Below are positions 1 through 46,034 of a stretch of DNA of 46,034 nucleotides, piece after piece. The stretch is from the IMG/VR virus record IMGVR_UViG_3300005828_000059; one strand, given 5' to 3'. A program made the position numbers and the translations under genes. The first letter of the stretch is position 1, and each line of letters opens with the position of its first letter. Under the pieces are notes generated by a model. It ran no database searches. It worked only from the letters and a program-made list of their open reading frames with translations, and was not told the DNA's origin. This DNA is from a virus.

Positions 1-1011
1 GATCGCCACGAAGTGCGGGAAGTGCGGGCGAGCGAGGTGGACGCCTGCTACGGCAGCACCGTACACGCCTACGAAGGCAGCAAGGTGGACGCCTACTACG
101 GCAGCAAGGTGGACGCCTACGAAGGCAGCGAGGTGGACGCCTGCTACGGCAGCACCGTACACGCCTACGACGGCAGCATAGTGCACGCCTACGAAGGCGG
201 CGAGGTGGACGCCTGCTACGGCAGCACCGTACACGCCTACGAAGGCAGCGAGGTGGACGCCCACGGCGGCAGCACAGTGCACGCCCACGAAGGCAGCACA
301 GCGCACGCCTACGAAGGCAGCGAGGTGGACGCCCGCGCCGGTAGCACGGTGCATGCCCACGAAGGCAGCACAGTGCACGCCCACGGCGGCAGCACGGTTC
401 ACGTACACCACGGCAGCAAGGTGGACGCCCGCGCCGGTAGCACGGTGCATGCCTACTACGGCAGCAAGGTGGACGCCCGCGCCGGTAGCACAGCGCACGC
501 CCACGAAGGCAGCACGGTGGCCGCCTACAGCAGCACGGTGCACGCCTGCTCCGGTAGCATGGTGCACGCCCACGAATGCAGCACCGTGCACGCCTACGAA
601 GGCAGCAAGGTGGACGCCTGCTCCGGTAGCATGGTGTACGCCTACGACAGCAGCGAGGTGCACGCCTATGCAGGCAGCAAGGTGTACGCCAACGACGGTG
701 GCATCGTGCACGCACACGAAGGCGGTACGGTGCATGCCTACTACGGCAGCAAGGTGTACGCCAACGGCGGCAGCACCGTGCAAGCCAACGAAGGCGGTAC
801 GGTGCATGCCTACTACGGCAGCAAGGTGTACGCCAACGGCGGCAGCACCGTGCAAGCCAACGACGGTGGCATCGTGCACGCACACGAAGGCGGTACGGTG
901 CATGCCTACTACGGCAGCACGGTGGAAGCCTACGCCGGCAGTACGGTGCATGCCTACGAAGGCAGCACGGTCGTCCGCGCGAATGGCAAGGGTGAATGGA
1001 GGAACGGATGA
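1..1011 (+). CDS. Tandem octapeptide-repeat protein. About 40 units of 8 aa, consensus G-S-(T/K/E)-V-(H/D)-A-(Y/H/C)-(E/Y/D). This is the 3' part of an ORF that starts at 45894 and crosses the circular junction (343 aa in total).
   Basis: A strict 24-nt periodicity runs from about 30 to 980. The frame is continuous with ATG 45894 through the 120-bp terminal overlap. The stop TGA at 1009-1011 overlaps the next ATG. Confidence 0.8.
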   Translation, partial: DRHEVREVRASEVDACYGSTVHAYEGSKVDAYYGSKVDAYEGSEVDACYGSTVHAYDGSIVHAYEGGEVDACYGSTVHAYEGSEVDAHGGSTVHAHEGSTAHAYEGSEVDARAGSTVHAHEGSTVHAHGGSTVHVHHGSKVDARAGSTVHAYYGSKVDARAGSTAHAHEGSTVAAYSSTVHACSGSMVHAHECSTVHAYEGSKVDACSGSMVYAYDSSEVHAYAGSKVYANDGGIVHAHEGGTVHAYYGSKVYANGGSTVQANEGGTVHAYYGSKVYANGGSTVQANDGGIVHAHEGGTVHAYYGSTVEAYAGSTVHAYEGSTVVRANGKGEWRNG

Positions 1012-1190
1012 AACAGGTTGGACGGCATGTATACGTTACCTTCTGTAATGACCTTTGGTCGGTCACTATAGATCTCGGTGAATACTTTGCACCACTTGAT
1101 GGCGGCGCTTGGAAAGAAAAGAAAGATGCAATAGTTGCCGCTCGCGCCGCTGCTACAGAATATAACTGCGGATGGACCATTGACGATTGA
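1008..1190 (+). CDS. Hypothetical early protein (60 aa)
   Basis: ATGA stop/start overlap with the repeat ORF. GGAGG lies at 998-1002. The track ORF 996..1190 is trimmed to this start. Confidence 0.6.
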   Translation: MKQVGRHVYVTFCNDLWSVTIDLGEYFAPLDGGAWKEKKDAIVAARAAATEYNCGWTIDD

Positions 1191-3350: not shown

Positions 3351-3378
3351 GCCCGCCTCTTCGGAGGCGGGCTTTTTT
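3351..3378 (+). terminator. Rho-independent terminator after the DUF932 gene
   Basis: GCCCGCCTC-TTCG-GAGGCGGGC forms a 9-bp stem and is followed by TTTTTT. Confidence 0.8.
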
Positions 3379-3388
3379 AGGAGGTAGC

Positions 3389-3676
3389 ATGAAAGACCCT
3401 TTAGAAGTTTTAGCGAGCGCGCTCGTGCCGGGGGATCATATTCGCACCAGCTTGATCGAGCCGTACAACCACGCGATGGTCGTGAAGGTCGACAAAGATA
3501 ACGTGTACCTCGTTCGACCGTACATGACCTGCGCCGACTTCATCTACGGCGATGACCCACAAGTCATCGAGTATACGGGGCACGAGCACTACAGCATCGC
3601 GCGTAGCGTGCGCGTTGTGCTCGTTCGCCCTTCAACCGTCAAGGAACTCAAGGAACTCAAGGACGAGGATCTCTAA
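3389..3676 (+). CDS. Hypothetical protein (95 aa) with C-terminus ...VKELKELKDEDL
   Basis: SD sequence TAGGAGGTAG upstream of the ATG. The last 26 nt of coding sequence recur at 37567-37592. Confidence 0.65.
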   Translation: MKDPLEVLASALVPGDHIRTSLIEPYNHAMVVKVDKDNVYLVRPYMTCADFIYGDDPQVIEYTGHEHYSIARSVRVVLVRPSTVKELKELKDEDL

Positions 3677-3677
3677 A

Positions 3678-3890
3678 ATGGAACAACTGCTTTGGATCGC
3701 CCCGCTTTCTCTTGCATCTTTCTTTAGCTTGCCGCCGCTCGGCGTGCTCGCGATTGCGCTCGGCGTTGCCGGCGCGCAAGTCACCACTCTACCCGCGCCA
3801 CCCCAGCCGGTCGTTGTCGAGAAGCCGGCACCGGCTCCGAGCGGTTATCTGCCGCCGGTTGTCATACTCGAGCGGCGCGGGCGGAGGTAG
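3678..3890 (+). CDS. Small membrane protein (70 aa): two hydrophobic helices followed by a Pro-rich tail
   Basis: The ATG lies 1 nt after the upstream stop. The sequence is MEQLLWIAPLSLASFFSLPPLGVLAIALGVAGAQV... The track ORF 3552..3890 is trimmed to this start. Confidence 0.5.
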   Translation: MEQLLWIAPLSLASFFSLPPLGVLAIALGVAGAQVTTLPAPPQPVVVEKPAPAPSGYLPPVVILERRGRR

Positions 3891-3897
3891 ACCGACT

Positions 3898-4122
3898 ATG
3901 AGGCGAGTGAGGATGCCTGCAGGAAGCAAAGAGCACGAAAGAGCATGCGCGCAAGAGATCGCGCGCATGCAAGCGTGCGAGACAAACCAGACTTGGTGCG
4001 TGTATGAGACGCTCGAGCGCGTGTTCGTGCGCTCGGATCACGTCGAGCCGCCCACGTCCGCAGTGCGCATCGGGATTGCACACCCCGACGGCACGTATCA
4101 ATACGTCAACGAGGAGGTTTAG
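3898..4122 (+). CDS. Hypothetical protein (74 aa)
   Basis: GCGGAGGTAG lies 8 nt upstream of the ATG. This is an internal start of track ORF 3712..4122. Confidence 0.5.
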   Translation: MRRVRMPAGSKEHERACAQEIARMQACETNQTWCVYETLERVFVRSDHVEPPTSAVRIGIAHPDGTYQYVNEEV

Positions 4123-6458: not shown

Positions 6459-9400
6459 TTACTTTTTCCCGAGCAGCATCCCGCCAATGAAGTCTCGAAT
6501 TGACTCCGGCTCTTCTTCGCCCACAGATAGCTGATACAGGTAATCGCCTGTCGTGATCAACTGTGATGTTGGGAGTCCAACCCACAACCCTGCGGCGCGC
6601 AAAATCTTCTTCGCAAACGCGTCGATGTCTTCGTCCCCTTGCAGCATATCTTTCGTGGATCCGACTGCGCTAGTCGTGGCAGTGTATAGCTGCGCGATCG
6701 GCGAAAACTGGTAGCTGTACCCGCGAGTCCATGCCGAAAAAGCATCTCGCGCAATCGGGATAGACGCTAGCGGATAGAGCGCTACCCCGGAGATAAACCT
6801 CCACCAGTCTTCCGGCTCGGCATCCTCGTCCGGCACATTACCGGTAAGGATCTCCGCCATCAGCGCCGGCACAACCCAGACCCACATCGTCCGCGCAAAC
6901 AGCCTTACAGGGTTCACCCTGCCGACATCGTGCCCGATGCTGCGCAGTTGCCCGTAGAGCGCGCTGAATGGCGTATAAAACAGCGTGAAGATCCGCATCA
7001 AGGCGTTCGAGCGAACCGCCACCATCGCTAAGTCTTTCGCTCCACCTGCGCCTTGCGATTTGCGCACTGCGCGGTCCCCTTCTCGGATCGCTTGCTCTTT
7101 CCCTTTTTTCTCATGGCGCGCCCGCTCGTAAGCGCCAAGCCAAGTCGGCAGACTCACGAGCATTTCAGTTAACCCGATCCCATACATTGACGCAGCCCGG
7201 ATCTGCGACAGTAGATCCTCTTTACCCGACAGCGAACGCAGAACATCGCGCAAGGTTTCGTCGCGAGTCTGGAACCGGTGCCGCATCTCTCCCGACATCG
7301 ACGTCACAAAATCATACGCAGCCGGCGGGTTCGAAATGAACCTGCGATAGCCGGTTACCATCCAGCGAGCGCCGGTTGCCTCGATCGCGGGGCCCAGGCC
7401 AGCAAGCTGAGTGATCATCGTGGATGCTTTGAATCCGAGAGCGGCGATCGTTACGTTGATGCGGGCGCTCTCCAGCATCTGCTGCCAGACAAAAAGCGCG
7501 CGGATGTTGTTCGCGCTGCGATCGTTCGCGATGTTGCGAACCCAGCCTTCCAGCAAGTTCAAATACTCAGACCCCGCTGTATCTGTGATCGCCTGTCGGA
7601 TCTTGCCGCTCCGCAAGACTTTGTTGGCGTCCATGATCACTTTGCGGTGCGTAAGGTCTTTAATGACGCCAGCAACTTCAGACGGCAGCCGGTTGAGCGT
7701 GAGGTCGAAAGCAGCGGTGAACTGCTGCACGCGCGCCTTGGTTCTCCCCTGGGGCGTTGTCGCGCGCACGTAGTTGTTGTCGACCAGTCCGCCAACTGTG
7801 GACGCGAGTTGGAGTCCGCCTCGATCCGAGTACCGGGGGTCATACATCAGTGGATAGTACCCGCCTCGATATGCGCCGAACTTCGTCTCCACTTGGCGCG
7901 CTTTCACCTCTTCCGGCTCAAGCCCGGTTAGCTCCTTCTGCAGTTTCCAGATCGCGGGTTTCATCGTCTCCAGGGTATCCCAAACACCCTGTACAAAATC
8001 CCACTCTTCTTTCGTCAGCAAGCCGAGGGCTTCGTCGATTTGCTCTTTGCTCCAGGTGACGCCCAACGTGTTGGAACGTACGAGTTTGTCGTAGTTGCTT
8101 TCGTTTCCTACGTTAAGCGCGATCCCGAGCAAGTCTCGCCGCACGAGATTGACTCCAGGCGTCAACCGGAGAACGACTTTGTCGAGCGCGCTCTTCTGAA
8201 CCTCGCTCGGGATATTCTGCACCGCACGTGTGATCTTCGCGGTAATCTCTTTCGTCAGATCGTACTCGGCGGTCTGTGCGTCAACTGCCGGGCTCCACAG
8301 AGTATCGTGCCAAGGGCCTGCAGTTCCGCCGTCAACGAACTCGAAGAAAATCTCCGGCTTGAGCATGCTCGCATCAAGCAGCTTTAATATGTGAGTGAGA
8401 CTCTCCCACAAAGACATCCCCTGCTCGGTTGCAGCGCGCAACTTCGCTTTGTTCTTGAACTGCTCGCGCACGCTCGCCGCAAGAGCGTCCTCTGTCTCCA
8501 GCCATTCGCGCTTTGCTGCGCTGGCGAGGAGCTTGTTCTTTACGCGCGCGATGTGCTCGATCTGACGAACGGTGTCGTAGATGCCGTTGATCTCGTCAAC
8601 CGTCAACTGCCGATAGTTGATGCGCGTAGTCTCTTCGACCAGCCTCGCCGGCAGATTGATCTCCTCGCCGAGTGTCTCTCCGCTCGCTTCCTTCTGCTTG
8701 ATCCACTCTCCCAGCGCTTCTCGCTTGTCGAGAGCTTTGTACGGGACACGGATAAACTCGAAGCGCCCCAGCAGCGCTTGGATTTGATCGAGGTAGTCGT
8801 GTCCGGCTTTCCCGAGACGCTCGATAACGGACCGGCGCTGAAACTTCGCCATGTATCGACGGACGTCTTCGACCTGCTCTCGCGCATCGAATGCAGCGTT
8901 GTATAGCTCCATGTTCAGAAGCTCGGTCCTCTTCGCTGCAGCCGCGCTCGCGAAATCTCGCCGCATCAAAGCTTCCATCGATTCGCGGCTCGACTTTCGC
9001 GCCATCCGCAGATAGCTCTGCGGATCCAGGTTGCGCACAGTCTGCTGTCCCACCATGCCCCGCGCCATCGAGCGCAGATCCGCGCGGCCTGGGATCGAGC
9101 GCATCATGCGTCGGCCTTCTGCCACTTGCGCACGCTCTTGGCGTTGCATGACTCGAATTGCCGGTTGCGCCTGCCGCACTAGCCGCTGGAGTGCGTCGAG
9201 TTCCATCTCGACGACGTCTGCACGGGCGTCGGTGTACAAAGAGCGGATAGCCTCTTCGCGTCGAGCCGCGTCGTTTGAGAGCATGTCCCCGAACTCTGCA
9301 TTGAGCCTTTCTTGGACGCGTCTCTTGATCTTGTCGCGCATAGGCTCTGCTTGCGCGATCGATTCGAGCATCTCCTTGCCGGAAGTGAATCCGAATTGCT

Positions 9401-12400
9401 CGGCAACTACATCGGGGTGCATCCCGCTTTCGCGAAGATACATGCCCCGTGTTCTACGCATGATGTCGAGTGTCTTGTACGCAGGGTCACCCTTGTAGAG
9501 ACGCTCGACATCATCCCGGTTGAGCTTTACCTCGACATCGAGAGGATCGCCTTGCGGACTCTTTCCACGGCGGAGCGCACTAATTGCGCGATACGTTGGA
9601 TCCGCGTAGGTTTCCTCTTCGACCTCTCGCGTGACTTCTTCCTTTCGTGCATTGTACTCATCGGTCTGGGCCCTCTTGATGTCGCGCATCATCTGCGCTT
9701 GCAAGCGCGCTCGGCCATCCTGACTGACGGCTTGCAAGCGAGCCTTGTATGCCGCAAACATCTCCGGAGACATGCCGGCTGTCTGTGCGTCGATGAAGAG
9801 CGGGATGAAAGAGTCTTCCTGGCGCGCAAGCTCGATCTCAGTATCGGTCGCGAAGATGCGATCGAATACGCCAGTCACCTCGGGCGATAGCTCCACATTC
9901 AGCGCGTGCAAATCTCGATACACGCGCTTGAACCACTCCCGGATCCGCGCGAACGTCTGGCGAAGCGCGCTCGACGGAGAGACTCCGCGCATGAAGTAAG
10001 CTTCGAGCCCGCGCGCGAACTTCTCGTGGTGCTCTGTCTGGATCTGAGCACGAGACTCGACGCCGAGCCATTTGAGGATCAGATCGTAGTCTTGCTTGAG
10101 CGTCGGGTCAGCGGTTTCGAGCGCTGCGAGATCCCCAAGCATCTCCAGATAGATATGCCCAGTCTCGTGGACGAAGCTCGTCAGGTTTGCGCCTTCGAGC
10201 AGACCCACCTCGAAGCGTCGACCCGCAGGCGTGTTCAGGAAGTTGACGAACGCGAGCGGCTTTGTCCGAGCCGACGCCGCAGAAGTCTCGTCTTGTCTTA
10301 GCCCGTATCTCTGTTCGTTCTCTTGCTTGATCTTGTCCGCTGCTGATTCCCGAATGCCAAGGTATTCGGCGTCGACTCGCGGAATGCCGAGCGTGACGAC
10401 AGCACCAGTCTGTCCGAAGTTGCGGTTGAAATAGCCGTCATAACCGGACTCGATGATCGCGTGCTCAAGCCCGTTCATCGCATTCGGTTTGCCCGCCTCG
10501 AGCCACGTCTTGACGATGCCGTCGGGATCCGCTACTGCGTCGTAGATATTGTCGAGCTTGACGCGATAGACGTGCTGTCCGATAACGGTGCCTTCCGCTC
10601 TCGGCATCACGCCGTCTTCCTTTTGCGCGTAAAAATACACGCGTGTTGCGAGCGGGGTGCCGTGAACTTTGATGCGCTCACGCTCGGCACCGGGTGTTCC
10701 GGTTCCGAACATGCTGCCGGACAACGAGGATAGGTTCTCAGCCTTCCCGTAGTGGACGCCGACGACGGAGATCGCGCCTGCTTTCGGCGGGCGCGCGTGG
10801 AACGTTGGAGTGTTTACTCCGGTTTGGTCTGACCAGCCAGCGGGTGTTGCTCCAGATACTTCTCCAGGTCCGCCTCGACCGTACCCCGCTGCACCTGCTC
10901 CTCCGGCGCGCTGTTCATCACCTGGAGCAACTCCTCTTTGCTCAAGGGTGCGCTCGACGCGCGTTGGGGCGAACCTACGTTCCAGTTCTGCAGCAAGCGC
11001 ATCTCTTCCTCGTTCGCGAAGCGAACGGGTGTACCCTTCGCCAGCTTTCGCTTTTGTCCAGTCATTCTCCACCGTCCTCAAGTCTGCAGGAAATCCGTAC
11101 GCGTCGATGTCGCCGAGTTCGAGATCTTCGGCGGCAGAGACAGCGGCGTCCTGGATAGATTGTAAAGCTTTTTTACTCCAGTGTCCTGTGGAGTTGACAA
11201 AGCGAATTCCAGGCACCCCGTTTACGGTCGTCTGCTGAAAGCCGGAAATGACTTTTTCCGGTTTGAGCCCTTCCGCTGACAAGTATGCGTACATGCGCTC
11301 GAACAGGTCGGTCGCGCGCTGCATCGAATTGATCTGAGGCCCGAGCACGTCGAACGCGTGCTTCTTTCCGCTCTTGAGCGCGCGCGTTACCCAGACCTCG
11401 GTCTGCCCGAAAGCATACCCGAGCGCAGTCGCGAAATCGTCGGCCGCTTCCGGGCTTGCGAGAGCGTCGATCTGAAATGCGCTCTCGACGCTGCCGAGGT
11501 ACGCGCCTGCGCCTTCCTCAGCCTGCATGATCTTGACGTTCGCCAGCTTCGCGATCTCTTCGATCCGCTGACGTGCTTGCTCGCCGGCAAACGAGGCTTG
11601 AGGCGCGCCTTCGCCCGGAGATAGCCCGAGTGACACTCGGCGCACATTCTTACCGATGATGTCGCTGACGAACTCAGGCTGGATCCTGAGCGCTTTCTGC
11701 AGCGAAACCCAACCAACCGCTTGCGCCTCGCTCGGGATCCAGTTCCCACCGTTGAATCCGCGCGCGTTTAGCTCGCGAGCGAGATCGTTGTAAAAGCGAG
11801 ATCCGTACTCATACTGGGGTTCATGAATCGACTTGAGGTCATTGCTGACTTTCTTGACCGCTTTCGCGCCGAATATCTCAATCAAACGGTTTCGCATTTT
11901 GTCGTCGACGAAGCCGATGTCGCGGAAAGCCCAAATGTCGATAGCCGCCGGACCACCCCCGCGAACATCTCGCCCCATCGCCGTGCGAGTCGAGAACCCC
12001 AGTTCGGAGTCCATGAAATCGAGAAGCTTTACACCGAGCCCGCTCTGAGGAGTTGTCCCGCGCAGCAAAGCGCGAATTGCGTTCTCCGCTAACCCGGCTC
12101 GCGAGTACCCAACCGGCGGAAGCCCGCGCTCTAGGTCCATCGCTCGCAACACGCTGCGGAAGCCGCCGCTTGGGCTTTCGTTTATCTGTGAGGCGAGCCA
12201 CGCAGTTCCGATTACCGGGGCATCCTCTCCGTACAGAGGCTCCAGCGTCGAAAACAGTTGCCGATACCACGCCCTCGACTGCCGAAGGTCTTCGGTGCTA
12301 AGCAGCGTGCTAACACGCTCGACCCAATCATCAAACGTCACACGCCCCACTACGAGCTTATTCTCGCCGGACTGAAGAACGGTCCTCTTGTTCAAGGGTG

Positions 12401-14888
12401 CCCCTACTCGCGCATCTCGCGCAAGCGTGCGACCGAGGCGACCTGGGGCTTCTGCGCGAGTGCGCTCGCTCTCTGCCGGGCTCACGCCTCCGGTGTAGTC
12501 CGGTTGAACCTCGACGACCGCTGCTCTCTGATACAGAGTCTTGCCCTTCGGCTTTCGAGTTGCGATCGTAATGTTCGGCATGAGATTATCGCCAGCGCGA
12601 GCTATGTACGGCGCGAACCCCAAACTGACGAGCCTCTCCATCTCAGTTATGCCCGAGTACGCGCCTGCATATGCGGAGTCCATGAACTCGACTTCGAGCC
12701 CATTCTCGTCGGCAAACGCGAGAACTTCTCCCAGCGCTTCCGCGCGAGCCTGTGGTTGGAACGGAAGCCATGTGATTGCGATCTTGCCGTTGTCCTGCAA
12801 GTTGAGCAGGAGCTTGTCGTTCGTGATCCGCTGATCGACTTCCTGCCCGAACCAGCCTTGATTGACTCGATCCTCGATCGAGTACAGCTTCCGCCGAAGC
12901 TCGCGCAAATCGCGCGCTTGCGAATAGCTCTCGCCTGTCGGCGCAGTCGTGGGCCCCTCTCCCGCGATAGCGGCCCGAACGGTTGGCGCGTACTGTTCCA
13001 CCAACGCAGCCGGATCCACGCCCGCGCGAGCGGCGAGCAGTTGGAGTGGCTGGCTGTACAACAGCTGCGCATACGTGTCGACGACATCGGGCGCGAACTT
13101 TCCGGTTGCGAGCAGCTGCTCGCGCAGTTGATTGAGGCGGGCTTCCGTTCCGCCGGCTGCCTGATCCTGCTGTTGCTGCTCCTGGTTGACGCGCTCCGAC
13201 AGCGCGCGCATCTGCCCCTGAAAGTAGGTCGCCTGACGCATGGTCATGTCGTCAAACTCGAGTTTCAGATCGAGCGATAGCTCGGCGTTGTGCTCTGTGG
13301 GGGCCAAGATCGCAGCGTACCGGCTCGTCGGAATCACGAGGTCGCCCTCGGTCTCGAGCGCGTCCGAGAGTGCCTGATCGGTGCCCATTACACGCCGAGC
13401 TACCTCTGCCGGATCGACCCCCACTGACTGCCAGTACCGAACCCAGTCATCCCCCAGGATTCGAACGTTCTCGATAGGGCCCCCCTCGGTGGCCTGGGCA
13501 GCGATCTCCTGGATCGAGCTTGGCAGCCGCTGATACGCTTTCGATTCCTTGATGTTCTCGCCCAGGGCCTGGAAATAGGCTGACCGAATCTGGGCGCTAC
13601 GGCTGGCCTGGAGGTCTCTGGCGAGGCCCATCGCGTGTCCGGGTAGCAGCATGAGCGGAAAGCTCTCCAGGGCCCCCACGCCCTCCCTAAGCAGATCCTG
13701 GCCTATGTCTCCCCAGGCTCGAGGCTGGAACCCGCCCTGGGCATACTTGGCAAGCTCGCCGGACATGATCGTGACGGCCCTCTGACCCACCTCCGTGGCG
13801 ACCTCGCCAGTCAGGTTCACGCCGAATTCGACCGCAAGGCTGCCCAGCGCTGACCGAACGGTAGGGGACCGTAGCGCATAGGCGACAGCATCCCGGCCGG
13901 CGGCCCCGAATAGCTTGCCCGCTCCGGGGATTGAGCGCAGCAAGAAACCCAGCTGCGCGGTTTCCAGGCCCGCGTTGAGCACCCCGGCGGCCTGGGCTGC
14001 CACGTAGGCAGTTTTCGGGTCTAAAGGCTGTCCGCGAGCGTCCCTGAAGCTCCTGTACTCCAGCCACGCGCCCCCGGCTTCTTGCTCCTGAGTCCACATG
14101 GCCGCGCCGGTAAAGGTGCCGGCCAGATAGCCGGCAAGCGCGGCAGCTGGAACCGTGACGACTTCTGCCGCTGGTACGATCGCGCTCGCAATCGCGACCC
14201 CGCCAGCGGTCGCGAGAGCGCCCTGAGCGCCCATCAGCTGGCCTTGGGCAAGAGCACCTCCCGTCTGTGGCAGTTGCTGGAGGGTACCCGCGATCATGCG
14301 CTGCCAGAGGGGGCCCGCTACCTCGCGGCGCGTCTGCTGCTCTCGCAGCAGAGACTCGAACCGGGCGCGCTCTTCACGCGAAAGCGCAAGCTGGGGATTG
14401 ATCGCGCTCTTCATTTCGCGAAACGCGAACCGGTTCAACTCGACATCTTCCATCCCACGCGCCATCGATTCGCGAGGTGCTTGGAGCATCCATTCGAGAG
14501 CGCCCATTCGCAGATAGTCGTCTCTCGCGACCGCTGCGTTGTATGGATTCTTGGCTGCCCAGGCTGCTACGATCGGGTTGTTCTTCGCGAACGCATCTGG
14601 ATCGAAGTCCGATTTCGCTGCTTCGGCTTTGATCGCGTCGAAATTCGACTTGACGAGATCTGGCGGAAGACCTGTACGTGTCGACAGCTTCAGAATATCC
14701 GCCGCTCGATCTGGGGCAAGATCTTTCGAGATGAACATCGAGCCCTTGAGGTTCGGCTGTTGTCCTGCTAGCTCGCGCGCGAAATCGTACGCCGGGCCTC
14801 CTGAGCGCATCGAGTCGGTTTTCGGGAGCAGCTGCTGTTGCTGCTCTTCCTTGTCCAGCTGTTGTAACTGCTCTGCAAACGTAGCCAT
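6459..14888 (-). CDS. Giant (2,809 aa) virion-associated or ejected multidomain protein of the 'polyvalent protein' type, carrying a zincin HExxH motif
   Basis: An uninterrupted 8.4-kb ORF in the tail/internal-protein block. HETGH lies at nt 10155-10169 (residue ~1574). A Gly/Ala-rich hydrophobic region spans about residues 200-330. Several hydrophobic helices occur in the last ~400 aa. Confidence 0.7.
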   Translation of the reverse strand: MATFAEQLQQLDKEEQQQQLLPKTDSMRSGGPAYDFARELAGQQPNLKGSMFISKDLAPDRAADILKLSTRTGLPPDLVKSNFDAIKAEAAKSDFDPDAFAKNNPIVAAWAAKNPYNAAVARDDYLRMGALEWMLQAPRESMARGMEDVELNRFAFREMKSAINPQLALSREERARFESLLREQQTRREVAGPLWQRMIAGTLQQLPQTGGALAQGQLMGAQGALATAGGVAIASAIVPAAEVVTVPAAALAGYLAGTFTGAAMWTQEQEAGGAWLEYRSFRDARGQPLDPKTAYVAAQAAGVLNAGLETAQLGFLLRSIPGAGKLFGAAGRDAVAYALRSPTVRSALGSLAVEFGVNLTGEVATEVGQRAVTIMSGELAKYAQGGFQPRAWGDIGQDLLREGVGALESFPLMLLPGHAMGLARDLQASRSAQIRSAYFQALGENIKESKAYQRLPSSIQEIAAQATEGGPIENVRILGDDWVRYWQSVGVDPAEVARRVMGTDQALSDALETEGDLVIPTSRYAAILAPTEHNAELSLDLKLEFDDMTMRQATYFQGQMRALSERVNQEQQQQDQAAGGTEARLNQLREQLLATGKFAPDVVDTYAQLLYSQPLQLLAARAGVDPAALVEQYAPTVRAAIAGEGPTTAPTGESYSQARDLRELRRKLYSIEDRVNQGWFGQEVDQRITNDKLLLNLQDNGKIAITWLPFQPQARAEALGEVLAFADENGLEVEFMDSAYAGAYSGITEMERLVSLGFAPYIARAGDNLMPNITIATRKPKGKTLYQRAAVVEVQPDYTGGVSPAESERTRAEAPGRLGRTLARDARVGAPLNKRTVLQSGENKLVVGRVTFDDWVERVSTLLSTEDLRQSRAWYRQLFSTLEPLYGEDAPVIGTAWLASQINESPSGGFRSVLRAMDLERGLPPVGYSRAGLAENAIRALLRGTTPQSGLGVKLLDFMDSELGFSTRTAMGRDVRGGGPAAIDIWAFRDIGFVDDKMRNRLIEIFGAKAVKKVSNDLKSIHEPQYEYGSRFYNDLARELNARGFNGGNWIPSEAQAVGWVSLQKALRIQPEFVSDIIGKNVRRVSLGLSPGEGAPQASFAGEQARQRIEEIAKLANVKIMQAEEGAGAYLGSVESAFQIDALASPEAADDFATALGYAFGQTEVWVTRALKSGKKHAFDVLGPQINSMQRATDLFERMYAYLSAEGLKPEKVISGFQQTTVNGVPGIRFVNSTGHWSKKALQSIQDAAVSAAEDLELGDIDAYGFPADLRTVENDWTKAKAGEGYTRSLRERGRDALAAELERRFAPTRVERTLEQRGVAPGDEQRAGGAGAAGYGRGGPGEVSGATPAGWSDQTGVNTPTFHARPPKAGAISVVGVHYGKAENLSSLSGSMFGTGTPGAERERIKVHGTPLATRVYFYAQKEDGVMPRAEGTVIGQHVYRVKLDNIYDAVADPDGIVKTWLEAGKPNAMNGLEHAIIESGYDGYFNRNFGQTGAVVTLGIPRVDAEYLGIRESAADKIKQENEQRYGLRQDETSAASARTKPLAFVNFLNTPAGRRFEVGLLEGANLTSFVHETGHIYLEMLGDLAALETADPTLKQDYDLILKWLGVESRAQIQTEHHEKFARGLEAYFMRGVSPSSALRQTFARIREWFKRVYRDLHALNVELSPEVTGVFDRIFATDTEIELARQEDSFIPLFIDAQTAGMSPEMFAAYKARLQAVSQDGRARLQAQMMRDIKRAQTDEYNARKEEVTREVEEETYADPTYRAISALRRGKSPQGDPLDVEVKLNRDDVERLYKGDPAYKTLDIMRRTRGMYLRESGMHPDVVAEQFGFTSGKEMLESIAQAEPMRDKIKRRVQERLNAEFGDMLSNDAARREEAIRSLYTDARADVVEMELDALQRLVRQAQPAIRVMQRQERAQVAEGRRMMRSIPGRADLRSMARGMVGQQTVRNLDPQSYLRMARKSSRESMEALMRRDFASAAAAKRTELLNMELYNAAFDAREQVEDVRRYMAKFQRRSVIERLGKAGHDYLDQIQALLGRFEFIRVPYKALDKREALGEWIKQKEASGETLGEEINLPARLVEETTRINYRQLTVDEINGIYDTVRQIEHIARVKNKLLASAAKREWLETEDALAASVREQFKNKAKLRAATEQGMSLWESLTHILKLLDASMLKPEIFFEFVDGGTAGPWHDTLWSPAVDAQTAEYDLTKEITAKITRAVQNIPSEVQKSALDKVVLRLTPGVNLVRRDLLGIALNVGNESNYDKLVRSNTLGVTWSKEQIDEALGLLTKEEWDFVQGVWDTLETMKPAIWKLQKELTGLEPEEVKARQVETKFGAYRGGYYPLMYDPRYSDRGGLQLASTVGGLVDNNYVRATTPQGRTKARVQQFTAAFDLTLNRLPSEVAGVIKDLTHRKVIMDANKVLRSGKIRQAITDTAGSEYLNLLEGWVRNIANDRSANNIRALFVWQQMLESARINVTIAALGFKASTMITQLAGLGPAIEATGARWMVTGYRRFISNPPAAYDFVTSMSGEMRHRFQTRDETLRDVLRSLSGKEDLLSQIRAASMYGIGLTEMLVSLPTWLGAYERARHEKKGKEQAIREGDRAVRKSQGAGGAKDLAMVAVRSNALMRIFTLFYTPFSALYGQLRSIGHDVGRVNPVRLFARTMWVWVVPALMAEILTGNVPDEDAEPEDWWRFISGVALYPLASIPIARDAFSAWTRGYSYQFSPIAQLYTATTSAVGSTKDMLQGDEDIDAFAKKILRAAGLWVGLPTSQLITTGDYLYQLSVGEEEPESIRDFIGGMLLGKK

Positions 14889-16697
14889 CTATCGGACTTG
14901 TCCTTTGAGGATCGCGTCGATCTCTTCAGTGCTCGCCCCACTTCTGGCAGCGCCCACCGCGCGCTGCATCCTGCGCCTCATGTCGGGCACATTATCGATG
15001 TCCTGGAGCTTTGTCGATACCGGAACAACTTCGAGAGCACGGATCCGGTTTCGGAGCGCCATCAAAGTGCCCGAAGCGTATTGCTTGTTGCCGATCCTTT
15101 GATACGCGAAATCCTTGTAGGGGACATACACGTTCGCGAGGTCATCCTCTTCGAGCTTGACGACCGGCACGTTTTCTTTGTCCCACCACCAGTTCTTCTC
15201 GACGTGGACGCGAGCGGCGAACATATCGGAGAGGATCTTGTCTTTCTCCGCGCCTGTTGCTCTTCGCTTGCCGCCAAGCTCGTGTTCTTCATATGCGTTC
15301 AGCCGGCGCTCAAACTCGGGTTGGACTTCGGCGATCGCTTCTTTGTTTTGTGCCCTTCCACGCTCAGAGCGCGGGAAATTTTTATCGACGATGCCGGCGT
15401 CTACCAGCGTTCTTCGGATTCGCTCGTCGTCAGACAGCACAGAAGTGAGCTTCGGGTCCGACATATCCTTCTTTTCGCCTGCGGTCCGCATCGTCTCCCA
15501 GCGAGACAAAACCGAGTTGAAGTGAGCATCATCCAGGTACGGACGAAGACGCATGATATCGGCTTTCGACATGCGCGCGACTTCCTGCACCGACTTGTCC
15601 AGGAAGTCGACATAGACGCCATCCTTGTTGACCGGCTCTATCCCGCGACGTGAGATGTCCCAGTAGCTTTTGAGCGCGGCGCGCTCTTGCACCGTCAGTT
15701 GCTGCCACATTGGAGTTGGGATATTAGTCCAGGATCCTTTTTGCTCGACGATGTTGGTCGCATCGACGAACCTCTGATCGTCCTCTTGCTTCTTGACTGC
15801 GCCCCGTACTGTCCAGTCAGCCTTGATGCGAGCTTCGGCGGCTTCCCGGACATCGGGATCCAGGCTCTTGGTCTGCTCCAGGGCTGCGCTGAGAGACTCT
15901 GTCGACGCCAAGATCTTGTCGGCTTCCGCTTGGGCCTGACCTTTTACGCTGCTGGTATGGAGCGCATCTCGAATCTTAGCCGCTTGCGCAGGATCGATCT
16001 CTTTTTCGTTCTGCGCGAAGTAGGCTTTCGCCTGTTTGTAGTTTTCGCCGGCCAGCATCTGCGTGATAACCGTCGAATGCATCTGCGATATCTTCGCTTC
16101 GGTTTGTTCTTTTAGCCACGCGGCTCCGCGCCCGTGCGACTTCGCGAAATCACCGAGCGAGGTCTCGATAAGCAACCCGGACTGTGCGATCACGTTGGGG
16201 TCGTAGTAGTTGCGGCCCGCATGATCGATCAATGTGTTGACGTACGATTGTGTCTCCTGCGTCTCGTAAGCGTCGATCTGCTGTGCCGTGTGGCGGTTGA
16301 CCGACATCGAAAGCTCGAAGTATCGAGTTTGCGCACGAGAATCGAAAGCCGGGATCTGGTCCTCGGACAAACCCGCGCGAATCTCTCCCGAGGTCTTCTG
16401 CCAGCGCTGCTCGAACTCGTCAGGAAGGCCGGCTGCGTCTTTGCCGACGCGTTTGATCGCGCCGTTATCGCCGTACATGAAGTCGCGCTCGAACTCCAGC
16501 AGCTTTCGATCTGCCTCCATCAGCGCTGTCGCGTCGGCTCTATGCTTGTACGCGCGAAAGACCGTCTCGCCGGAACGCGCGAGCGTATTCCCGAGCCCGA
16601 CGCCGAACGCGCGTTGATCGACTTGCGTAGACAGCCGGACTGCCGGCGCTCCGGTGGGGCTTACCTGCTGTCCTGTCATCTTCGGTACGACTGGCAT
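14889..16697 (-). CDS. Internal virion/ejection protein candidate (602 aa, largely helical)
   Basis: Contiguous with the giant ORF: its TAG is followed directly by the giant's ATG. The position and composition are typical of podovirus internal core proteins. No specific motif was recognised. Confidence 0.5.
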   Translation of the reverse strand: MPVVPKMTGQQVSPTGAPAVRLSTQVDQRAFGVGLGNTLARSGETVFRAYKHRADATALMEADRKLLEFERDFMYGDNGAIKRVGKDAAGLPDEFEQRWQKTSGEIRAGLSEDQIPAFDSRAQTRYFELSMSVNRHTAQQIDAYETQETQSYVNTLIDHAGRNYYDPNVIAQSGLLIETSLGDFAKSHGRGAAWLKEQTEAKISQMHSTVITQMLAGENYKQAKAYFAQNEKEIDPAQAAKIRDALHTSSVKGQAQAEADKILASTESLSAALEQTKSLDPDVREAAEARIKADWTVRGAVKKQEDDQRFVDATNIVEQKGSWTNIPTPMWQQLTVQERAALKSYWDISRRGIEPVNKDGVYVDFLDKSVQEVARMSKADIMRLRPYLDDAHFNSVLSRWETMRTAGEKKDMSDPKLTSVLSDDERIRRTLVDAGIVDKNFPRSERGRAQNKEAIAEVQPEFERRLNAYEEHELGGKRRATGAEKDKILSDMFAARVHVEKNWWWDKENVPVVKLEEDDLANVYVPYKDFAYQRIGNKQYASGTLMALRNRIRALEVVPVSTKLQDIDNVPDMRRRMQRAVGAARSGASTEEIDAILKGQVR

Positions 16698-25790: not shown

Positions 25791-25830
25791 TCAGCGGTTG
25801 TCAGCGGTTGTCAGCGGTTGTCAGCGGTTG
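25791..25830. repeat. Perfect tandem repeat: 4 copies of the 10-nt unit TCAGCGGTTG (CAACCGCTGA on the coding strand)
   Basis: Read directly from the sequence. Copy 4 contains the stop codon of ORF 25821-26153. Copy 1 abuts the SD of the next gene. Confidence 0.95.
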
Positions 25831-27788: not shown

Positions 27789-28451
27789 TCAGGCCGCTTT
27801 GTTTCCGTAGATACGGTCAGCGAGATCGCGCGGCTGCTTGCTGCCACCGCCTTCTCCGCCAGTCTCGAACTTATCGTCACGCATCGCCTTTCCGACCTTG
27901 GCGAACACGCGCACGAGTTCAGGATGATTTCCGTACCCACTTTCGTTCAGTGCCTTGCGAAAATCCGCTGTTGCGAAACGCTCGAGCGCGCGGTTGACGT
28001 CGGAGATCGTAGCGTCGTAATTGCTGCCGCCGATATCCTTGTCTGCCTTAATCGCGTCCGGCCACTGCTTCGTGACAAGCTCATTCCACTGCTGTTGACG
28101 CTCAGTGACAAGCTTCGTCACCTCGGCATCGACAGTCCCAAGCAACTTCTTCGCGCTCTCCGAGTTCAGCCCGAGTTGGGTTGCGTACTCTTTGACGCGC
28201 GCAGTAGCTTCTGCATCGAGCGGAGAACCGTCTCGCAACGTCAGCGTGTACTCTCCAGTGTCTTTCGACTGCGCGTCCGACTGCTGGTTTTGCTGTTGCT
28301 GATCGCTGCCCTGCTGGTTCTGCTGCGATTGTTGATCGCCCTGCGATTGCTGGTTCTGCTTATCTTGCTGCTGGTTCTGCTTATCTTGCTGCTGGTCTTG
28401 CTGCTGGTCTTGCTGCTGCTGGTTCTGCTGCTGCTGGTTATCGTCAGACAT
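27789..28451 (-). CDS. Scaffolding protein candidate (220 aa) with an N-terminal tract of about 55 aa rich in Gln, Asn and Asp
   Basis: Lies between the portal-proximal ORF and the capsid gene. The C-terminal part is helical and charged. The ATG at 28451 has GGAAGAGG upstream. Confidence 0.55.
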   Translation of the reverse strand: MSDDNQQQQNQQQQDQQQDQQQDKQNQQQDKQNQQSQGDQQSQQNQQGSDQQQQNQQSDAQSKDTGEYTLTLRDGSPLDAEATARVKEYATQLGLNSESAKKLLGTVDAEVTKLVTERQQQWNELVTKQWPDAIKADKDIGGSNYDATISDVNRALERFATADFRKALNESGYGNHPELVRVFAKVGKAMRDDKFETGGEGGGSKQPRDLADRIYGNKAA

Positions 28452-34689: not shown

Positions 34690-34970
34690 TCTTGTTACCG
34701 CCGCGCGTACCCCCCTTTAGGGGGGTAAAATCGGGAAACAATCGGTAACAATCTAACATGTTGATTCCAAACGCTTTTCACTGCCCTCCGATTGTTACCC
34801 GTTGACAACAGATTTTGATCAGCGGGAAACAATCGCCTTTTGCGTGTTTTCAAGCACTTAGCTCAGGATCTTGTTTCCCGGTTTTTTCGGGAAACAATCG
34901 GTAACAATCGGTAACAATCGAAAAATGTACATACATACAGTGCTTTTCTGTATTTTCGTACAGTACGCTC
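34690..34970. promoter_or_regulatory. Putative replication origin: an iteron cluster, a G6/C6 hairpin and an AT-rich segment
   Basis: The motif (G)G(G/T)AAACAATCG occurs in direct orientation at 34733-34744, 34745-34753, 34824-34835, 34889-34900, 34901-34910 and 34911-34920. It occurs inverted at 34789-34798, 34871-34880 and, as a variant, 34691-34700. The hairpin TACCCCCC-TTTA-GGGGGGTA lies at 34708-34727. An AT-rich stretch spans 34921-34970. Confidence 0.55.
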
Positions 34971-34991: not shown

Positions 34992-37037
34992 TTACAGTAC
35001 CGACACCCGATATCCACGCATCTTCGTGCCCTGCATTGCCCGCTCGATCAAACCTTCCTCCACCATCGACTTGCAAATCGACATGATCATATTGGTCCTG
35101 ATCCCGGTGACCAGCTGAATGTCGCGTATGACTGCCGCTTCCTTGAGATCACATACCTCCGCGATCGCTTGCAGCACCTTCGCGCGGCGCGCGTGCATCT
35201 CCGCCGTAACCGCAGCTTGATCCTTCGCCGCTACCGCAGGGCGCTTATAGTCGAATGGAGTAAGCACACTGCTCTCGCCGATTACCACGCGCTCGAAGTA
35301 AGCCTCGCTGCCGATCCTGGACACGTTGGTCTTGCTGAGCCTGAGCTTGAGGATATCGTCGTAGAGGGACTCCTCGATGTCTTGCTCGGCGCACCATTTC
35401 TCTTTCGCCTTCAGCGGGCATGGTGGGGTTAGAAACGCCGTCGCGCGCGTGTTGAAGACGATCGCGCTCGCTCCTCGTACATCACCTTGAGATAGCTCGT
35501 GGCCTTCGTCGAGCTTGGCAAGAGCGGCTTTGGAGATGTGCGCGCTCGCGATCACAGCAGCGCCGGTCTGCTTCGCCATGAATTCCATCATCTCGACGAA
35601 GCGGATCCCGGCTTGGTTGCTGCCTTCCTCGCCGCCCAGGAATCTCGCCAGAGGATCCAGCACAATCAGCCTGGGGCGCTCCACTGACTTCGCGCGCTCG
35701 ACGACCGTCCTGACCTGCTCCCAGATCGGCTCGGGGTTTCCGTCGATCTGCTTGAGCAACTGGACTGTACGGCCAACCATGGGTATGATCTGCAGTCGCC
35801 GGGTCAGCAAGGCGCGCTCTGCCTCCGAGAAGTGTCTAAGCTGATGAATGCCCCACAAGCGACGCTCGATCTCTTCGCCGTCATCCTCCGTCGCGAGTAT
35901 CAGCACTGACCCGGCATCTTCTGGCGGCAGGGTAGGAACCCCGCCCAGCATCTCACCCAGGCAGACCGAGATCCCCAGCTGCAGGAGGAACTGGGTTTTG
36001 CTGCCGCCGCCCGAGGCTGCCAGGACGCCTGTTTTAGCCCGCTCGAAGAACCCCCCTAGCACCCATTTCCGGGGGCTGGGGACGGTCGAGAAAGCCCGCT
36101 CGATGTCGACCCCCTGAAGCTGTTTAGGCGGGGGCTGGGCGGGCTGGGAAGGCTCGGCAGAGGGAAATGCCTCGATCAGGCTCTCCGCCTCGCTCCAGCC
36201 GCCCTGGCGGGCCAGGAAGCGTACGCTATCGAGCCCTACCTTGACCCCGCCCTCGGAGCGCCCGAAGGACTCCCACCTGCGCCGGTTCTCTCGCGGGTCG
36301 TAGTTGCCCTGGGTCGTCCTCTGGGACCAATCGTCGAAGATCTCCCAGGCACCCTCACCATAGGCGTCCTTGAGCGCCATTCCCACCTTGAGCCACGTGG
36401 TGTCGTCGGACGGGTCTACGTGCTCGAGCAGACGCTCTAGCTCGGAATGCGCTGGCGTGGGTTCCCGCCTCTCGACCGGCAGGGGTGCGACCTTGGCGCG
36501 AGCTTGCTCCTGGATCCACTCGACTAGCTCGGCTCCGTCAGCTAGCTGCGGATCCAGGTTGGCGTCGTCCCAGAGATCCCCGGTGATCGTGAAGTAGCGC
36601 TTGTCGCGGTAGACCTCGATCTTGCCGTCGAGCAGCGTCGTGCGCAGCGAGCGCTCCAGGCTGCTGCAGCGGACGATCAGATGGAGGCCCTGTCCGCTCG
36701 GGCTCACCTCGATGTAGGCACCTGCCGGCGCGCGCTTGAGGACTTCCTCGGCGAGCCTGTTCGGTTCTCCATCCTTGTCCAGACAGTGATCCAGGTCGAT
36801 GCCGGCTACGCCCTCTCCGAGGACGTAGCCGATACCGTCGAAATGTCCGGGAAGCCTCTGCAGCGTGTTGAACGCGCGCTCGAAGCTAGTCCAAGTCCCC
36901 GAGTCCGTCGTAGACGCATGTACACCATTCGCCTGGAACGGAACCTTGCGAGAGTGCATCACCCACCTCGCGTGGGCACGAAGAAAAGCAGGGATGCTCT
37001 GCGGCCGAAGGGAGGAAGGCATAGGGACAGAATCCAT
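34992..37037 (-). CDS. Bifunctional Prim-Pol primase / RecA-like (AAA_25-type) helicase with a C-terminal wHTH-like domain (681 aa)
   Basis: GIDLDHC and EVSPSGQGLHLIV are Prim-Pol motifs. WLKVGMALKD...DDWSQ is PriCT-2-like. The Walker A motif is ASGGGSKTQ and the Walker B motif is LIVLDPL. Confidence 0.8.
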   Translation of the reverse strand: MDSVPMPSSLRPQSIPAFLRAHARWVMHSRKVPFQANGVHASTTDSGTWTSFERAFNTLQRLPGHFDGIGYVLGEGVAGIDLDHCLDKDGEPNRLAEEVLKRAPAGAYIEVSPSGQGLHLIVRCSSLERSLRTTLLDGKIEVYRDKRYFTITGDLWDDANLDPQLADGAELVEWIQEQARAKVAPLPVERREPTPAHSELERLLEHVDPSDDTTWLKVGMALKDAYGEGAWEIFDDWSQRTTQGNYDPRENRRRWESFGRSEGGVKVGLDSVRFLARQGGWSEAESLIEAFPSAEPSQPAQPPPKQLQGVDIERAFSTVPSPRKWVLGGFFERAKTGVLAASGGGSKTQFLLQLGISVCLGEMLGGVPTLPPEDAGSVLILATEDDGEEIERRLWGIHQLRHFSEAERALLTRRLQIIPMVGRTVQLLKQIDGNPEPIWEQVRTVVERAKSVERPRLIVLDPLARFLGGEEGSNQAGIRFVEMMEFMAKQTGAAVIASAHISKAALAKLDEGHELSQGDVRGASAIVFNTRATAFLTPPCPLKAKEKWCAEQDIEESLYDDILKLRLSKTNVSRIGSEAYFERVVIGESSVLTPFDYKRPAVAAKDQAAVTAEMHARRAKVLQAIAEVCDLKEAAVIRDIQLVTGIRTNMIMSICKSMVEEGLIERAMQGTKMRGYRVSVL
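35731..35776. repeat. 46-nt exact direct repeat, copy A (inside the helicase coding region)
   Basis: TCGGGGTTTCCGTCGATCTGCTTGAGCAACTGGACTGTACGGCCAA is identical to 37467-37512. Confidence 0.95.
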
Positions 37038-37103
37038 TGCAAGGTTGGAGTTGTAAAGGTTCGGGGCTTACGCTGCTTTTCGCGCTGCTCTTCGCGCGGC
37101 TCT

Positions 37104-45471: not shown

Positions 45472-45497
45472 GCCCCGCTCATGCGGGGCTTTTTTTT
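45472..45497 (+). terminator. Rho-independent terminator
   Basis: GCCCCGC-TCAT-GCGGGGC followed by T8. Confidence 0.8.
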
Positions 45498-45540
45498 GCC
45501 AACAAAATCTGAGTGTTATGCATTTCTTTATCAACACCTG

Positions 45541-45569
45541 TTGACAAGCTACGTGAACCCGAGGAGAAT
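45541..45569 (+). promoter_or_regulatory. Sigma70-like promoter for the repeat-protein/early operon
   Basis: TTGACA (45541-45546) is followed by a 17-nt spacer and GAGAAT (45564-45569). It shares the upstream context C(C)CTGTTGACA with the 44862-44874 promoter. Confidence 0.5.
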
Positions 45570-45575
45570 GGATCC

Positions 45576-45893
45576 TGTAGCACGTAACACCGCGAAGGGC
45601 CAGCGGGATAGAAAAAGGGCACCGGGGTCAACCTGATCTAGAGCCGAAAGGCTGAGGGGCAGCCCCAGACCGCTAGGACTTAGCCGATCTGTCGAAAGGC
45701 TAACGAGTGCGAACCGACCGAGCCGGGCAGCGCCATCGATGCTGCGCAAGCACCCGGCTCGCAGAGATAGGTGCCCTCGATCGAGGACGTCGATTTCTGC
45801 GACAACAACGGGGGTAGCATGATGCAAAACATTCTTAACCTGACGCAACACACGTTCGAACGTCCGTTTGGCTTGAATCTTGAGGAGGATGGT
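45576..45893 (+). ncRNA. Roughly 320-nt structured 5' leader or candidate cis-regulatory RNA upstream of the octapeptide-repeat gene
   Basis: No convincing ORF is present. Several helices can be drawn:
- 45616-45623 pairs with 45770-45777.
- AGCC-GAAA-GGCT lies at 45642-45653.
- TAGCC...GGCTA pairs 45681-45685 with 45698-45702.
- The 9-bp helix CGAGCCGGG/CCCGGCTCG pairs 45719-45727 with 45753-45761.
- A palindrome lies at 45775-45786.
The motif CGAAAGGCT occurs twice. Confidence 0.4.
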
Positions 45894-46034
45894 ATGCCTG
45901 TATCAAGGAATGGCGATCGCCACGAAGTGCGGGAAGTGCGGGCGAGCGAGGTGGACGCCTGCTACGGCAGCACCGTACACGCCTACGAAGGCAGCAAGGT
46001 GGACGCCTACTACGGCAGCAAGGTGGACGCCTAC
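45894..46034 (+). CDS. 5' part of the octapeptide-repeat protein ORF. It continues at base 1, and 45915-46034 duplicates 1-120.
   Basis: The ATG at 45894 has GAGGAGGA 4 nt upstream. In-frame alternative starts exist at ATG 45819/45822 and GTG 45771, with an in-frame stop at 45768-45770. Confidence 0.7.
   Translation, partial: MPVSRNGDRHEVREVRASEVDACYGSTVHAYEGSKVDAYYGSKVDAY
45915..46034. repeat. 120-bp terminal overlap identical to 1-120 (circular closure or direct terminal repeat)
   Basis: A base-by-base comparison of the two ends shows they are identical. Confidence 0.95.

Follow-up and report, generated by a model that had tools for sequence, protein, structure and literature searches.

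The described proteins that come closest to the subject of this report are repeat proteins from very different settings. In T4 gp5C and VgrG (PF22178) the repeat has a period of eight residues, with a Gly kink and alternating inward residues that are small or hydrophobic; in its register position a is G, position b is N or D and position g is V (V-x-G), and the strands are six residues long (PMC3004832). Ice-nucleation proteins (PF00818) are built of 16-residue repeats, each comprising two eight-residue coils (AGYGSTxT), and Ectromelia virus EVM025, an orthologue of F1L, carries N-terminal DIDNGIVQ octads whose copy number varies among isolates (PMC8232671). Here we describe a gene in IMG/VR virus record IMGVR_UViG_3300005828_000059, a stretch of 46,034 nucleotides (nt) that is referred to as a whole as the window, which encodes a protein composed almost entirely of G-S-x-V-x-A-x-x octads. 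Motif and profile indicate that its closest kin are uncurated octad proteins. Those in PHROG 15773 and 22557 share with it S2, V4, A6, an aromatic seventh residue and D/E/G as the eighth, as well as a non-structural early or recombination setting and instability of copy number. Unlike most of these relatives, the protein in the window has no partner domain and is unusually rich in His, and its best phmmer relative is merely 43% identical to it.

The first 120 nt of the window recur unchanged at its other end (1-120 = 45915-46034), leaving 45,914 bp of unique sequence, and the repeat open reading frame (ORF) is therefore continuous from its ATG at 45894, across the end overlap, to the TGA at 1009-1011. 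The product has 343 amino acids (aa) and a mass of 35 kDa, and about 95% of it is made of 40 octads, flanked by some 16 non-repeat residues at the N-terminus and some 14 at the C-terminus. A reading of the window made from the sequence alone had called the array near-perfect, which holds for its 24-nt period and not for its sequence identity, as Tandem Repeats Finder (TRF) counted 39.1 copies with 71% matches between them. Parsed as protein, the array has 41 units, one of which is a residue short and shifts the octad register by one codon. G1 is kept in 37 of the 41 units, S2 in 34, V4 in 38 and A6 in 38, and the remaining positions vary: T21/K8/E6/I3/M2 at position 3, H21/D10/Y4/Q2 at position 5, Y17/H9/N6/C5/R3 at position 7 and E14/Y8/G5/A5/D4 at position 8. 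These counts agree with the octads and residues that the sequence-only reading had assigned to the ORF, and the 72-nt super-unit that it had seen repeated with a single mismatch was found as described (1 of 72 nt different). The whole protein contains 39 D+E, 18 K+R, 32 His (9.3%), 8.5% Tyr and 6 Cys. The longest exact repeat within the array is 76 nt, followed by repeats of 64 nt (at 688 and 856) and 50 nt (at 32 and 200).

Several kinds of evidence indicate that the ORF is a real protein-coding gene: a Shine-Dalgarno sequence with its ATG, the codon entropy, an ATGA overlap with the next gene, an independent gene call, and homologues. In codons for the four conserved residues, mean entropy is 0.26 bits at positions 1-2 versus 0.61 at position 3, and in codons for the four variable residues the values are similar (1.02 versus 0.92), a pattern that argues for protein-level selection in this frame with diversified surface residues. 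The frame is open from 45771, and the in-frame ATGs at 45819 and 45822 have poorer Shine-Dalgarno sequences. An independent Joint Genome Institute (JGI) gene call on contig Ga0074474_1534575 placed the start at the identical ATG and found the same 60-aa gene downstream; its overlap with the repeat gene suggests translational coupling, and library scans gave no family match for it. Translation of the gene is thus supported by the codon entropy, the ribosome-binding site, the overlap and the JGI call. Among the other frames, frame 2 (ORF 353-1048) was rejected as coding, having an early stop in the array and a low-complexity T/P/A/R product where the codon pattern favors frame 1, and frame 3 has many stops.

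The JGI contig (45,866 bp) comes from the same phage, with zero mismatches over the 13 kb compared besides 168 missing nt. Its repeat gene encodes 287 aa and 33 octads rather than 40, and the missing interval corresponds to residues 33-88 and is bounded by the 50-nt exact repeat. The lengths reconcile exactly (45,866 = 45,914 - 168 + 120) and in this contig the gene lies away from the ends, so the 120-nt end overlap of the window looks like a circular-assembly overlap, or circular permutation, and not a fixed terminal repeat. The 40-octad form is considered real sequence because its seven extra octads hold unit variants absent elsewhere in the array; the 33-octad form may be either a true deletion allele or an assembly collapse. 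The same phage was found in three further samples (L015, JGI 3300021852; L016, SRR7086083; L017, JGI 3300021276), as contigs of about 1 kb. Those from L017 and L015 end inside the array, at 756 and 895 (around the super-unit block), and that from L016 begins just past it, at 1090, so short-read assemblies evidently fragment at the repeat locus. Array length also differs among homologues: relatives with a DUF7666 domain whose flanks are 85-88% identical have from 6 to about 19 octads, and a gut-phage subfamily (Bacteroidota-phage-like) has from a few to more than 20. Expansion and contraction of the array, which the sequence-only reading had deduced from the super-unit, are thus well supported in the family by sequence comparison and likely in this phage.

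These data also bear on whether the array might be an assembly artefact, or a non-coding repeat (iterons, or a packaging or recombination signal) that is open by chance in one frame. The window does end inside the gene, the short-read contigs of three other samples do break in or beside the array, and the two assemblies do differ by 168 nt. However, the extra 168 nt hold unit variants unique in the array, so they are no invention of an assembler; the longest exact internal repeat (76 nt) does not reach the 120 nt of the overlap; the second assembly has the gene in its interior; synonymous exceeds non-synonymous variation at conserved residues; and hundreds of protein-level relatives have unrelated DNA. 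This explanation is largely refuted, and we give it next to no credence.

AlphaFold2, run as a monomer from a 29-row alignment, predicted an all-beta structure with a mean predicted local distance difference test (pLDDT) of 92.4 and a predicted template modeling score (pTM) of 0.86. The model has about 41 strands of four residues each, spaced exactly eight residues apart, with octad residues 3-6 in the strand. It predicts with high confidence that the protein is a single-chain parallel beta-solenoid rod with one strand per octad, and, with the same confidence, that each octad consists of a strand x3-V4-x5-A6 followed by a four-residue corner x7-x8-G1-S2. Alternation along the strand would place V4 and A6 in the core and turn positions 3 (T/K/E) and 5 (H/D/Y) outward as ladders. 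Foldseek searches of the PDB with this model were led by the right-handed beta-helices of autotransporters, TibA (4q1q) at E = 1.9e-6, then Ag43 (7ko9/7kob) and pertactin (1dab), with E values up to 1e-3. The beta-solenoid that the sequence-only reading had suggested is well supported as a prediction. The predicted solenoid geometry nonetheless resembles no solved protein well (template modeling (TM) score <= 0.36). Sequence searches of the PDB with the single protein gave nothing meaningful, and with the 29-row profile nothing at E <= 1.

Like the rod predicted here, autotransporter passengers are long single-chain parallel beta-helices made from short repeats. Unlike them, the protein in the window is phage-encoded and has no signal peptide (its N-terminus is MPVSRNGDRHEVREVRAS) and no beta-barrel translocator, ending 14 residues past the array. 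The adhesin-like role that had been considered for it seems unlikely, because this N-terminus has no hydrophobic signal segment. In BFVD, Foldseek matched a phage neck-appendage protein, an Ectromelia virus 'caspase 9 inhibitor' and giant-virus collagen-like proteins. The Ectromelia protein, which we take to be EVM025, was the second-best viral structural match (E = 6.5e-8, TMq 0.42), and its DIDNGIVQ octads are an interesting parallel from another virus realm. EVM025 differs in belonging to a eukaryotic virus, in its unrelated consensus and in having its repeats appended to a Bcl-2-like domain. Ice-nucleation repeats share the octad periodicity and a Y-x-G-S-T-x-x-A-like string, and PF00818 matches 1 of 117 relatives; the protein in the window, in contrast, has no PF00818 match, lacks the water-ordering TxT motif and does not belong to the outer membrane.

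The eight-residue period is also that of the T4 gp5C prism (PMC3004832), which raises the question of whether the protein could be an intertwined trimeric beta-helix of the gp5/VgrG type, in which each of three chains would supply one eight-residue side per layer to a needle or spike of about 190 A, for use in the virion or against the envelope. Gp5_trimer_C matched the protein weakly in Pfam, 12 of 117 relatives touch the same model (best 5.9e-11), and two of the relatives carry DUF2345. The match, however, is sub-threshold (E = 7e-4; 20.1 bits against a gathering threshold of 30.9), with no single stretch that passes, and the register differs, running V4-x-A6-x-x-G1 (A-x-x-G against V-x-G in gp5) with strands of four rather than six residues. 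Searched against the PDB at E <= 1, the family profile hit neither gp5 nor VgrG. Hub, OB-fold, lysozyme and gp27-like domains are all missing from the protein, its gene belongs to the accessory arm and not to the tail genes at 17-30 kb, and the monomer model is already confident. A gp5-like needle therefore appears very improbable.

A geometry of three octads per turn, suggested on the basis of the super-unit, is a conjecture. Within this protein, identity at the variable positions is 0.41, 0.32 and 0.35 at lags of 3, 6 and 9 units versus 0.21-0.30 at other lags. The family as a whole shows no lag-3 periodicity (the profile is flat across 108 relatives), and the signal may for that reason only record the 72-nt duplication.

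None of the curated collections scanned (Pfam, PHROGs, NCBIfam, PADLOC) has a family that covers the repeat protein. NCBIfam gave only a sub-threshold match to LktA_tand_53 (21 bits against 50), PADLOC gave none, and the PHROG matches, phrog_15773 (E = 1.7e-8) and phrog_22557 (E = 4.4e-7), are of unknown function. Relatives are nevertheless abundant. A word-indexed search found 28, at E values down to 1e-26, and an exhaustive phmmer search of 1.84 billion representatives found 906 clusters at E <= 1e-3 and 162 at <= 1e-10 (best E 8e-32), which supports the statement in the sequence-only reading that similar repeats exist in uncharacterised phage and bacterial proteins. At the DNA level, the three-octad pattern occurs in more than 120 stretches among the matches listed in IMG/VR. 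Octad relatives extend to a microvirus of 5.4 kb and to a phage of Porphyromonas, and some are chromosomal in bacteria. In the microvirus (L007; PQ007169.1, bajarodmic virus 919) a 184-aa octad gene at 3354-3908 has the replication initiator and the pilot protein on either side; a gene of that size is notable given the compactness of the genome.

A comparison of 114 relatives showed what is conserved and what is free. Conservation is 83% for V4, 77% for A6 and 67% for S2, position 7 is aromatic, position 8 is D/E/G, and positions 3 and 5 are free, with a charge per octad that ranges from -1.17 to +1.69. The protein in the window has the family motif (S2, V4, A6 and G/S/N at position 1). Its 40 octads make it the third-longest of the 114, and at 95% repeat it is one of only three above 85%. 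It is also one of the most His-rich (9.7% of the repeat region, 7th of 114) and, with a net charge of -0.57 per octad, is more acidic than the median.

This composition could point to a metal-binding or metal-sequestering protein, in which outward ladders of His, Asp, Glu, Tyr and Cys, with residues spaced 4.8 A along the solenoid, would form many Zn, Ni, Cu or Fe sites for storage, buffering or catalysis. The His, Tyr, Cys and acidic content given above would suit such a role, as would the rank in His content and the outward position 5, which is His or Asp in 21 and 10 of the 41 units, respectively. However, His at position 5 is not a family trait (6% family-wide, with a median His content of 0.9%), no metal-binding family was matched, and how neighboring ladders would be placed relative to each other depends on the number of residues per coil. 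We consider a metal-related function improbable.

In most relatives the array is shorter and is fused to a second domain. Among 117 representatives, the partner was DUF7666 in 17 and DUF5758 in 4, and a partner of this kind thus appears common in relatives and not universal. Beside the array in the window no Pfam domain, DUF7666 and DUF5758 included, passes its threshold, and there is no N-terminal TTQAELDAA-type cap. The DUF7666 domains of relatives P0028, P0003 and P0010 and the DUF5758 domains have a common motif, C-G-x-G-[LI]-H, and in P0035 this motif is N-terminal to the repeats. An AlphaFold2 model of P0028 (pLDDT 85.4) matched no PDB fold at E <= 0.001, and faint rows resembling ADP-ribosyltransferase (ART) toxins had probabilities of at most 0.16. 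A search of the literature on DUF7666, DUF5758, beta-solenoid phage DNA mimics and eight-residue-repeat beta-helices found no paper.

Because most relatives fuse the array to another domain, it could be a scaffold: a self-associating filament, fibre or spacer in the manner of bactofilins, with no specific ligand, that might polymerise in the infected cell, or else a solenoid left over after loss of an effector domain. The rarity of relatives that are more than 85% repeat is in keeping with this, and exposed ends of beta-solenoids favor end-to-end association. Yet the protein in the window keeps the third-longest array, under constraint at the protein level; its gene heads a transcription unit and has a strong ribosome-binding site; and no bactofilin or other polymer family was matched in Pfam. 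On this evidence a scaffold seems about as improbable as a metal-binding protein.

The setting of relatives provides another view of the family. Gene content suggests that phage octad members sit mostly in early, replication or recombination regions. At individual loci they were found beside WhiB, RecT and a DNA methylase; beside YqaJ, RecT, Mom and Dam; beside a primase-polymerase and a PDDEXK nuclease; beside a single-stranded-DNA-binding protein, thymidylate synthase and an SNF2 helicase; and beside methyltransferases and an Apyc1-like gene. When neighbors were clustered for 86 IMG/VR loci with a complete repeat ORF, RecT or AAA_24 (Sak4-like) was found one or two genes downstream in 20, often followed by YqaJ. 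This order recalls gam-bet-exo of lambda, with the octad gene in the position that gam has relative to bet and exo. It is a lead rather than functional evidence, because it comes largely from one protein subfamily.

The function that we tentatively favor, as possible rather than probable, is that of a decoy for, or an inhibitor of, some host protein of DNA handling or defense, with recombination in the array evolving both its surface and its length. The protein would be made early in the host cytoplasm and would act through its surface, without catalysis: a rigid, mildly polyanionic rod would bind a host DNA-handling or defense protein and then block or sequester it, in a decoy mode likened to that of pentapeptide-repeat DNA mimics and lambda Gam. 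Unequal recombination among the near-identical 24-nt units would alter the length of the rod and reshuffle its surface, which would give the phage a quickly evolvable binding surface. This reading was chosen because the core is conserved and the surface free, because there is no catalytic or partner domain, because the family occurs in accessory or early regions beside anti-restriction and recombination genes, and because the rod carries a mild excess of negative charge. Pentapeptide-repeat proteins (Qnr, MfpA, AlbG) are likewise right-handed beta-helix rods of short tandem repeats with a net negative surface. Their period, however, is five and not eight, the A(D/N)LXX motif is absent here, the charge of the protein in the window is modest and not conserved in the family, and no Pfam Pentapeptide model (PF00805 / PF13599) matched it at E <= 1.

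A number of points weigh against a decoy. No experiment and no curated family links any octad member to this or another function. Acidity and His-richness are lineage traits that are not conserved family-wide, and a charge of about -0.6 per octad is far below that of classical DNA mimics such as Ocr. Early expression is deduced from gene position alone. The RecT- or AAA_24-linked proteins are essentially one subfamily, all 20 of them, and the recombinase association is absent in the phage of the window. On the structural side, AlphaFold2 gives confident solenoids for idealised repeats, here from an alignment of 29 rows, and the PDB matches found by Foldseek have probabilities of about 1.0 yet TM scores of 0.23-0.36 and root-mean-square deviations of 12-14 A. 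Finally, the 33-octad form could be an assembly collapse and not a real variant.

A broader version of the decoy reading would extend it to the family: octad solenoids would form an unrecognised and very widespread class among the early proteins of phages, with members in Microviridae, actinophages and podophages, and would act as decoys or inhibitors of host nucleases or defense proteins. Their Val/Ala core and hypervariable ladders, the latter evolved by recombination, would make them the beta-solenoid counterpart of Gam, Ocr and the pentapeptide-repeat mimics. The protein in the window would then be the minimal, solenoid-only form, in which His/Asp ladders could add metal- or pH-dependent binding. 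We regard this wider proposal as speculative and rather unlikely.

The genome is podophage-like and of about 45.9 kb. Its minus strand, from about 6.4 to 44.7 kb, encodes a helicase, exonuclease, DNA polymerase and primase-helicase, as well as terminase, portal, major head protein and tail protein, the head and tail genes lying at about 17-32 kb. The plus-strand arm, from 45091 to about 6.5 kb, includes the repeat gene and consists of small ORFans; its only other protein with a match is one of 361 aa (phrog_1362 and weak DUF932). The portal is at most 46% identical to any GenBank phage portal, and when 11 kb were compared with the INPHARED phages by megablast there was no hit. IMG/VR was scanned with both the repeat protein and the helicase and yielded no relative of this phage; the helicase also had no hit in the JGI metagenomes scanned. 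The ORFs scanned include no integrase, and a tRNA scan of the window found none.

Upstream of the repeat gene, the sequence-only reading had proposed a promoter of its own and a long structured leader. The first part is plausible: a sigma-70-like promoter candidate precedes the gene, which would make it the first behind its own promoter, with 1 such site found versus 0.5 expected in shuffled sequence. The second part is not supported, as the fold of the leader (z = +0.51) is no more stable than that of shuffled sequence, and neither the leader nor the window in its full length gave an Rfam match at threshold. Two small hairpins, AGCC-GAAA-GGCT and TAGCC...GGCTA, lie in the leader at 45640-45700. 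Coordinates of these features and of those in the array are collected in Table 1.

Table 1. Positions in the window of the octad-repeat gene, its internal repeats and its flanking elements.
Feature	Position	Strand	Basis or remark
Terminator-like hairpin and T-run, closing the upstream 118-aa gene (45091-45447)	45472..45499	+	7 G-C pairs (hairpin 45472-45489), then TTTTTTTT
Sigma-70-like promoter candidate, TTGACA-17 nt-GAGAAT	45541..45569	+	consensus match only, 10/12
Leader of ~325 nt with weaker in-frame starts (45819, 45822)	45570..45893	+	folding versus shuffles; Rfam
Shine-Dalgarno sequence GAGGAGGA, 4 nt before the ATG	45882..45889	+	sequence
Repeat-protein coding sequence, 5' part (codons 1-47)	45894..46034	+	45915-46034 duplicates 1-120
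Repeat-protein coding sequence, remainder, stop TGA 1009-1011	1..1011	+	in-frame homologues to E = 1e-26; codon-position entropy
50-nt exact direct repeat, left copy, bounding the 168-nt (7-octad) polymorphism	32..81	+	second assembly is without exactly this interval
24-nt tandem array, 39 copies, G-S-x-V-x-A-x-x octads	36..971	+	TRF score 773; per-position counts
50-nt exact direct repeat, right copy	200..249	+	repeat search
Sole seven-residue unit, GSTVAAY	508..528	+	residue parsing
Three-octad super-unit, copy 1	721..792	+	72 nt
Three-octad super-unit, copy 2	793..864	+	1 mismatch versus copy 1
Single-nucleotide polymorphism, C to A (T to K at octad position 3)	918..918	+	only such difference in a 928-nt contig (L017, JGI sample 3300021276)
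60-aa downstream gene, ATG overlapping the repeat-gene TGA (ATGA 1008-1011)	1008..1190	+	JGI call: 60-aa gene, 4-nt overlap

Other features of the genome were noted in passing. A 72-aa gene on the minus strand (44604-44822), for which a precomputed Pfam annotation on the sister contig gives P22_Cro / YdaS, sits beside the region where the two strand arms diverge and could act as the early regulator. After the tail genes and a 602-aa endolysin-like ORF (14889-16697) lies a 2,809-aa ORF (6459-14888, minus strand) whose sole Pfam match is LPD22, a 'large polyvalent protein' domain (residues 55-142); its product may be a giant virion protein that is internal or ejected. Two sites 34 kb apart, 3639-3664 and 37567-37592, carry the same 26 nt, TCAAGGAACTCAAGGAACTCAAGGAC (2.8 copies of a 9-nt unit), with dissimilar flanks; on the plus strand both copies read KELKELKD, and the second lies in a 394-aa plus-strand ORF (36681-37865) that overlaps a 301-aa minus-strand ORF (37104-38009). 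TRF also found two perfect short arrays, TCAGCGGTTG x 4.0 at 25791-25830 and AACAATCGGT x 2.8 at 34893-34920, and an imperfect 12-24-nt array is present at 28348-28438.

The octad protein is real, abundant as a type, structurally distinctive and experimentally tractable, while solenoids built of repeats are unsurprising in themselves. If it is only the remnant of a scaffold, the finding would be an ordinary one. If the fold prediction is true, it is a beta-solenoid of eight-residue units that lies outside every curated repeat family, and if the protein is truly a decoy of a host nuclease or defense protein, phage counter-defense would gain a new structural class. The protein in the window is a good entry point to these questions, being a long solenoid that stands alone and has natural variants of 40 and 33 octads; as these occur in otherwise identical genomes, they provide a ready-made test of whether length matters. 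As relatives fill more than 900 clusters and occur in many phage early regions, assigning a function to even one of them would extend annotation to much viral 'dark matter'.

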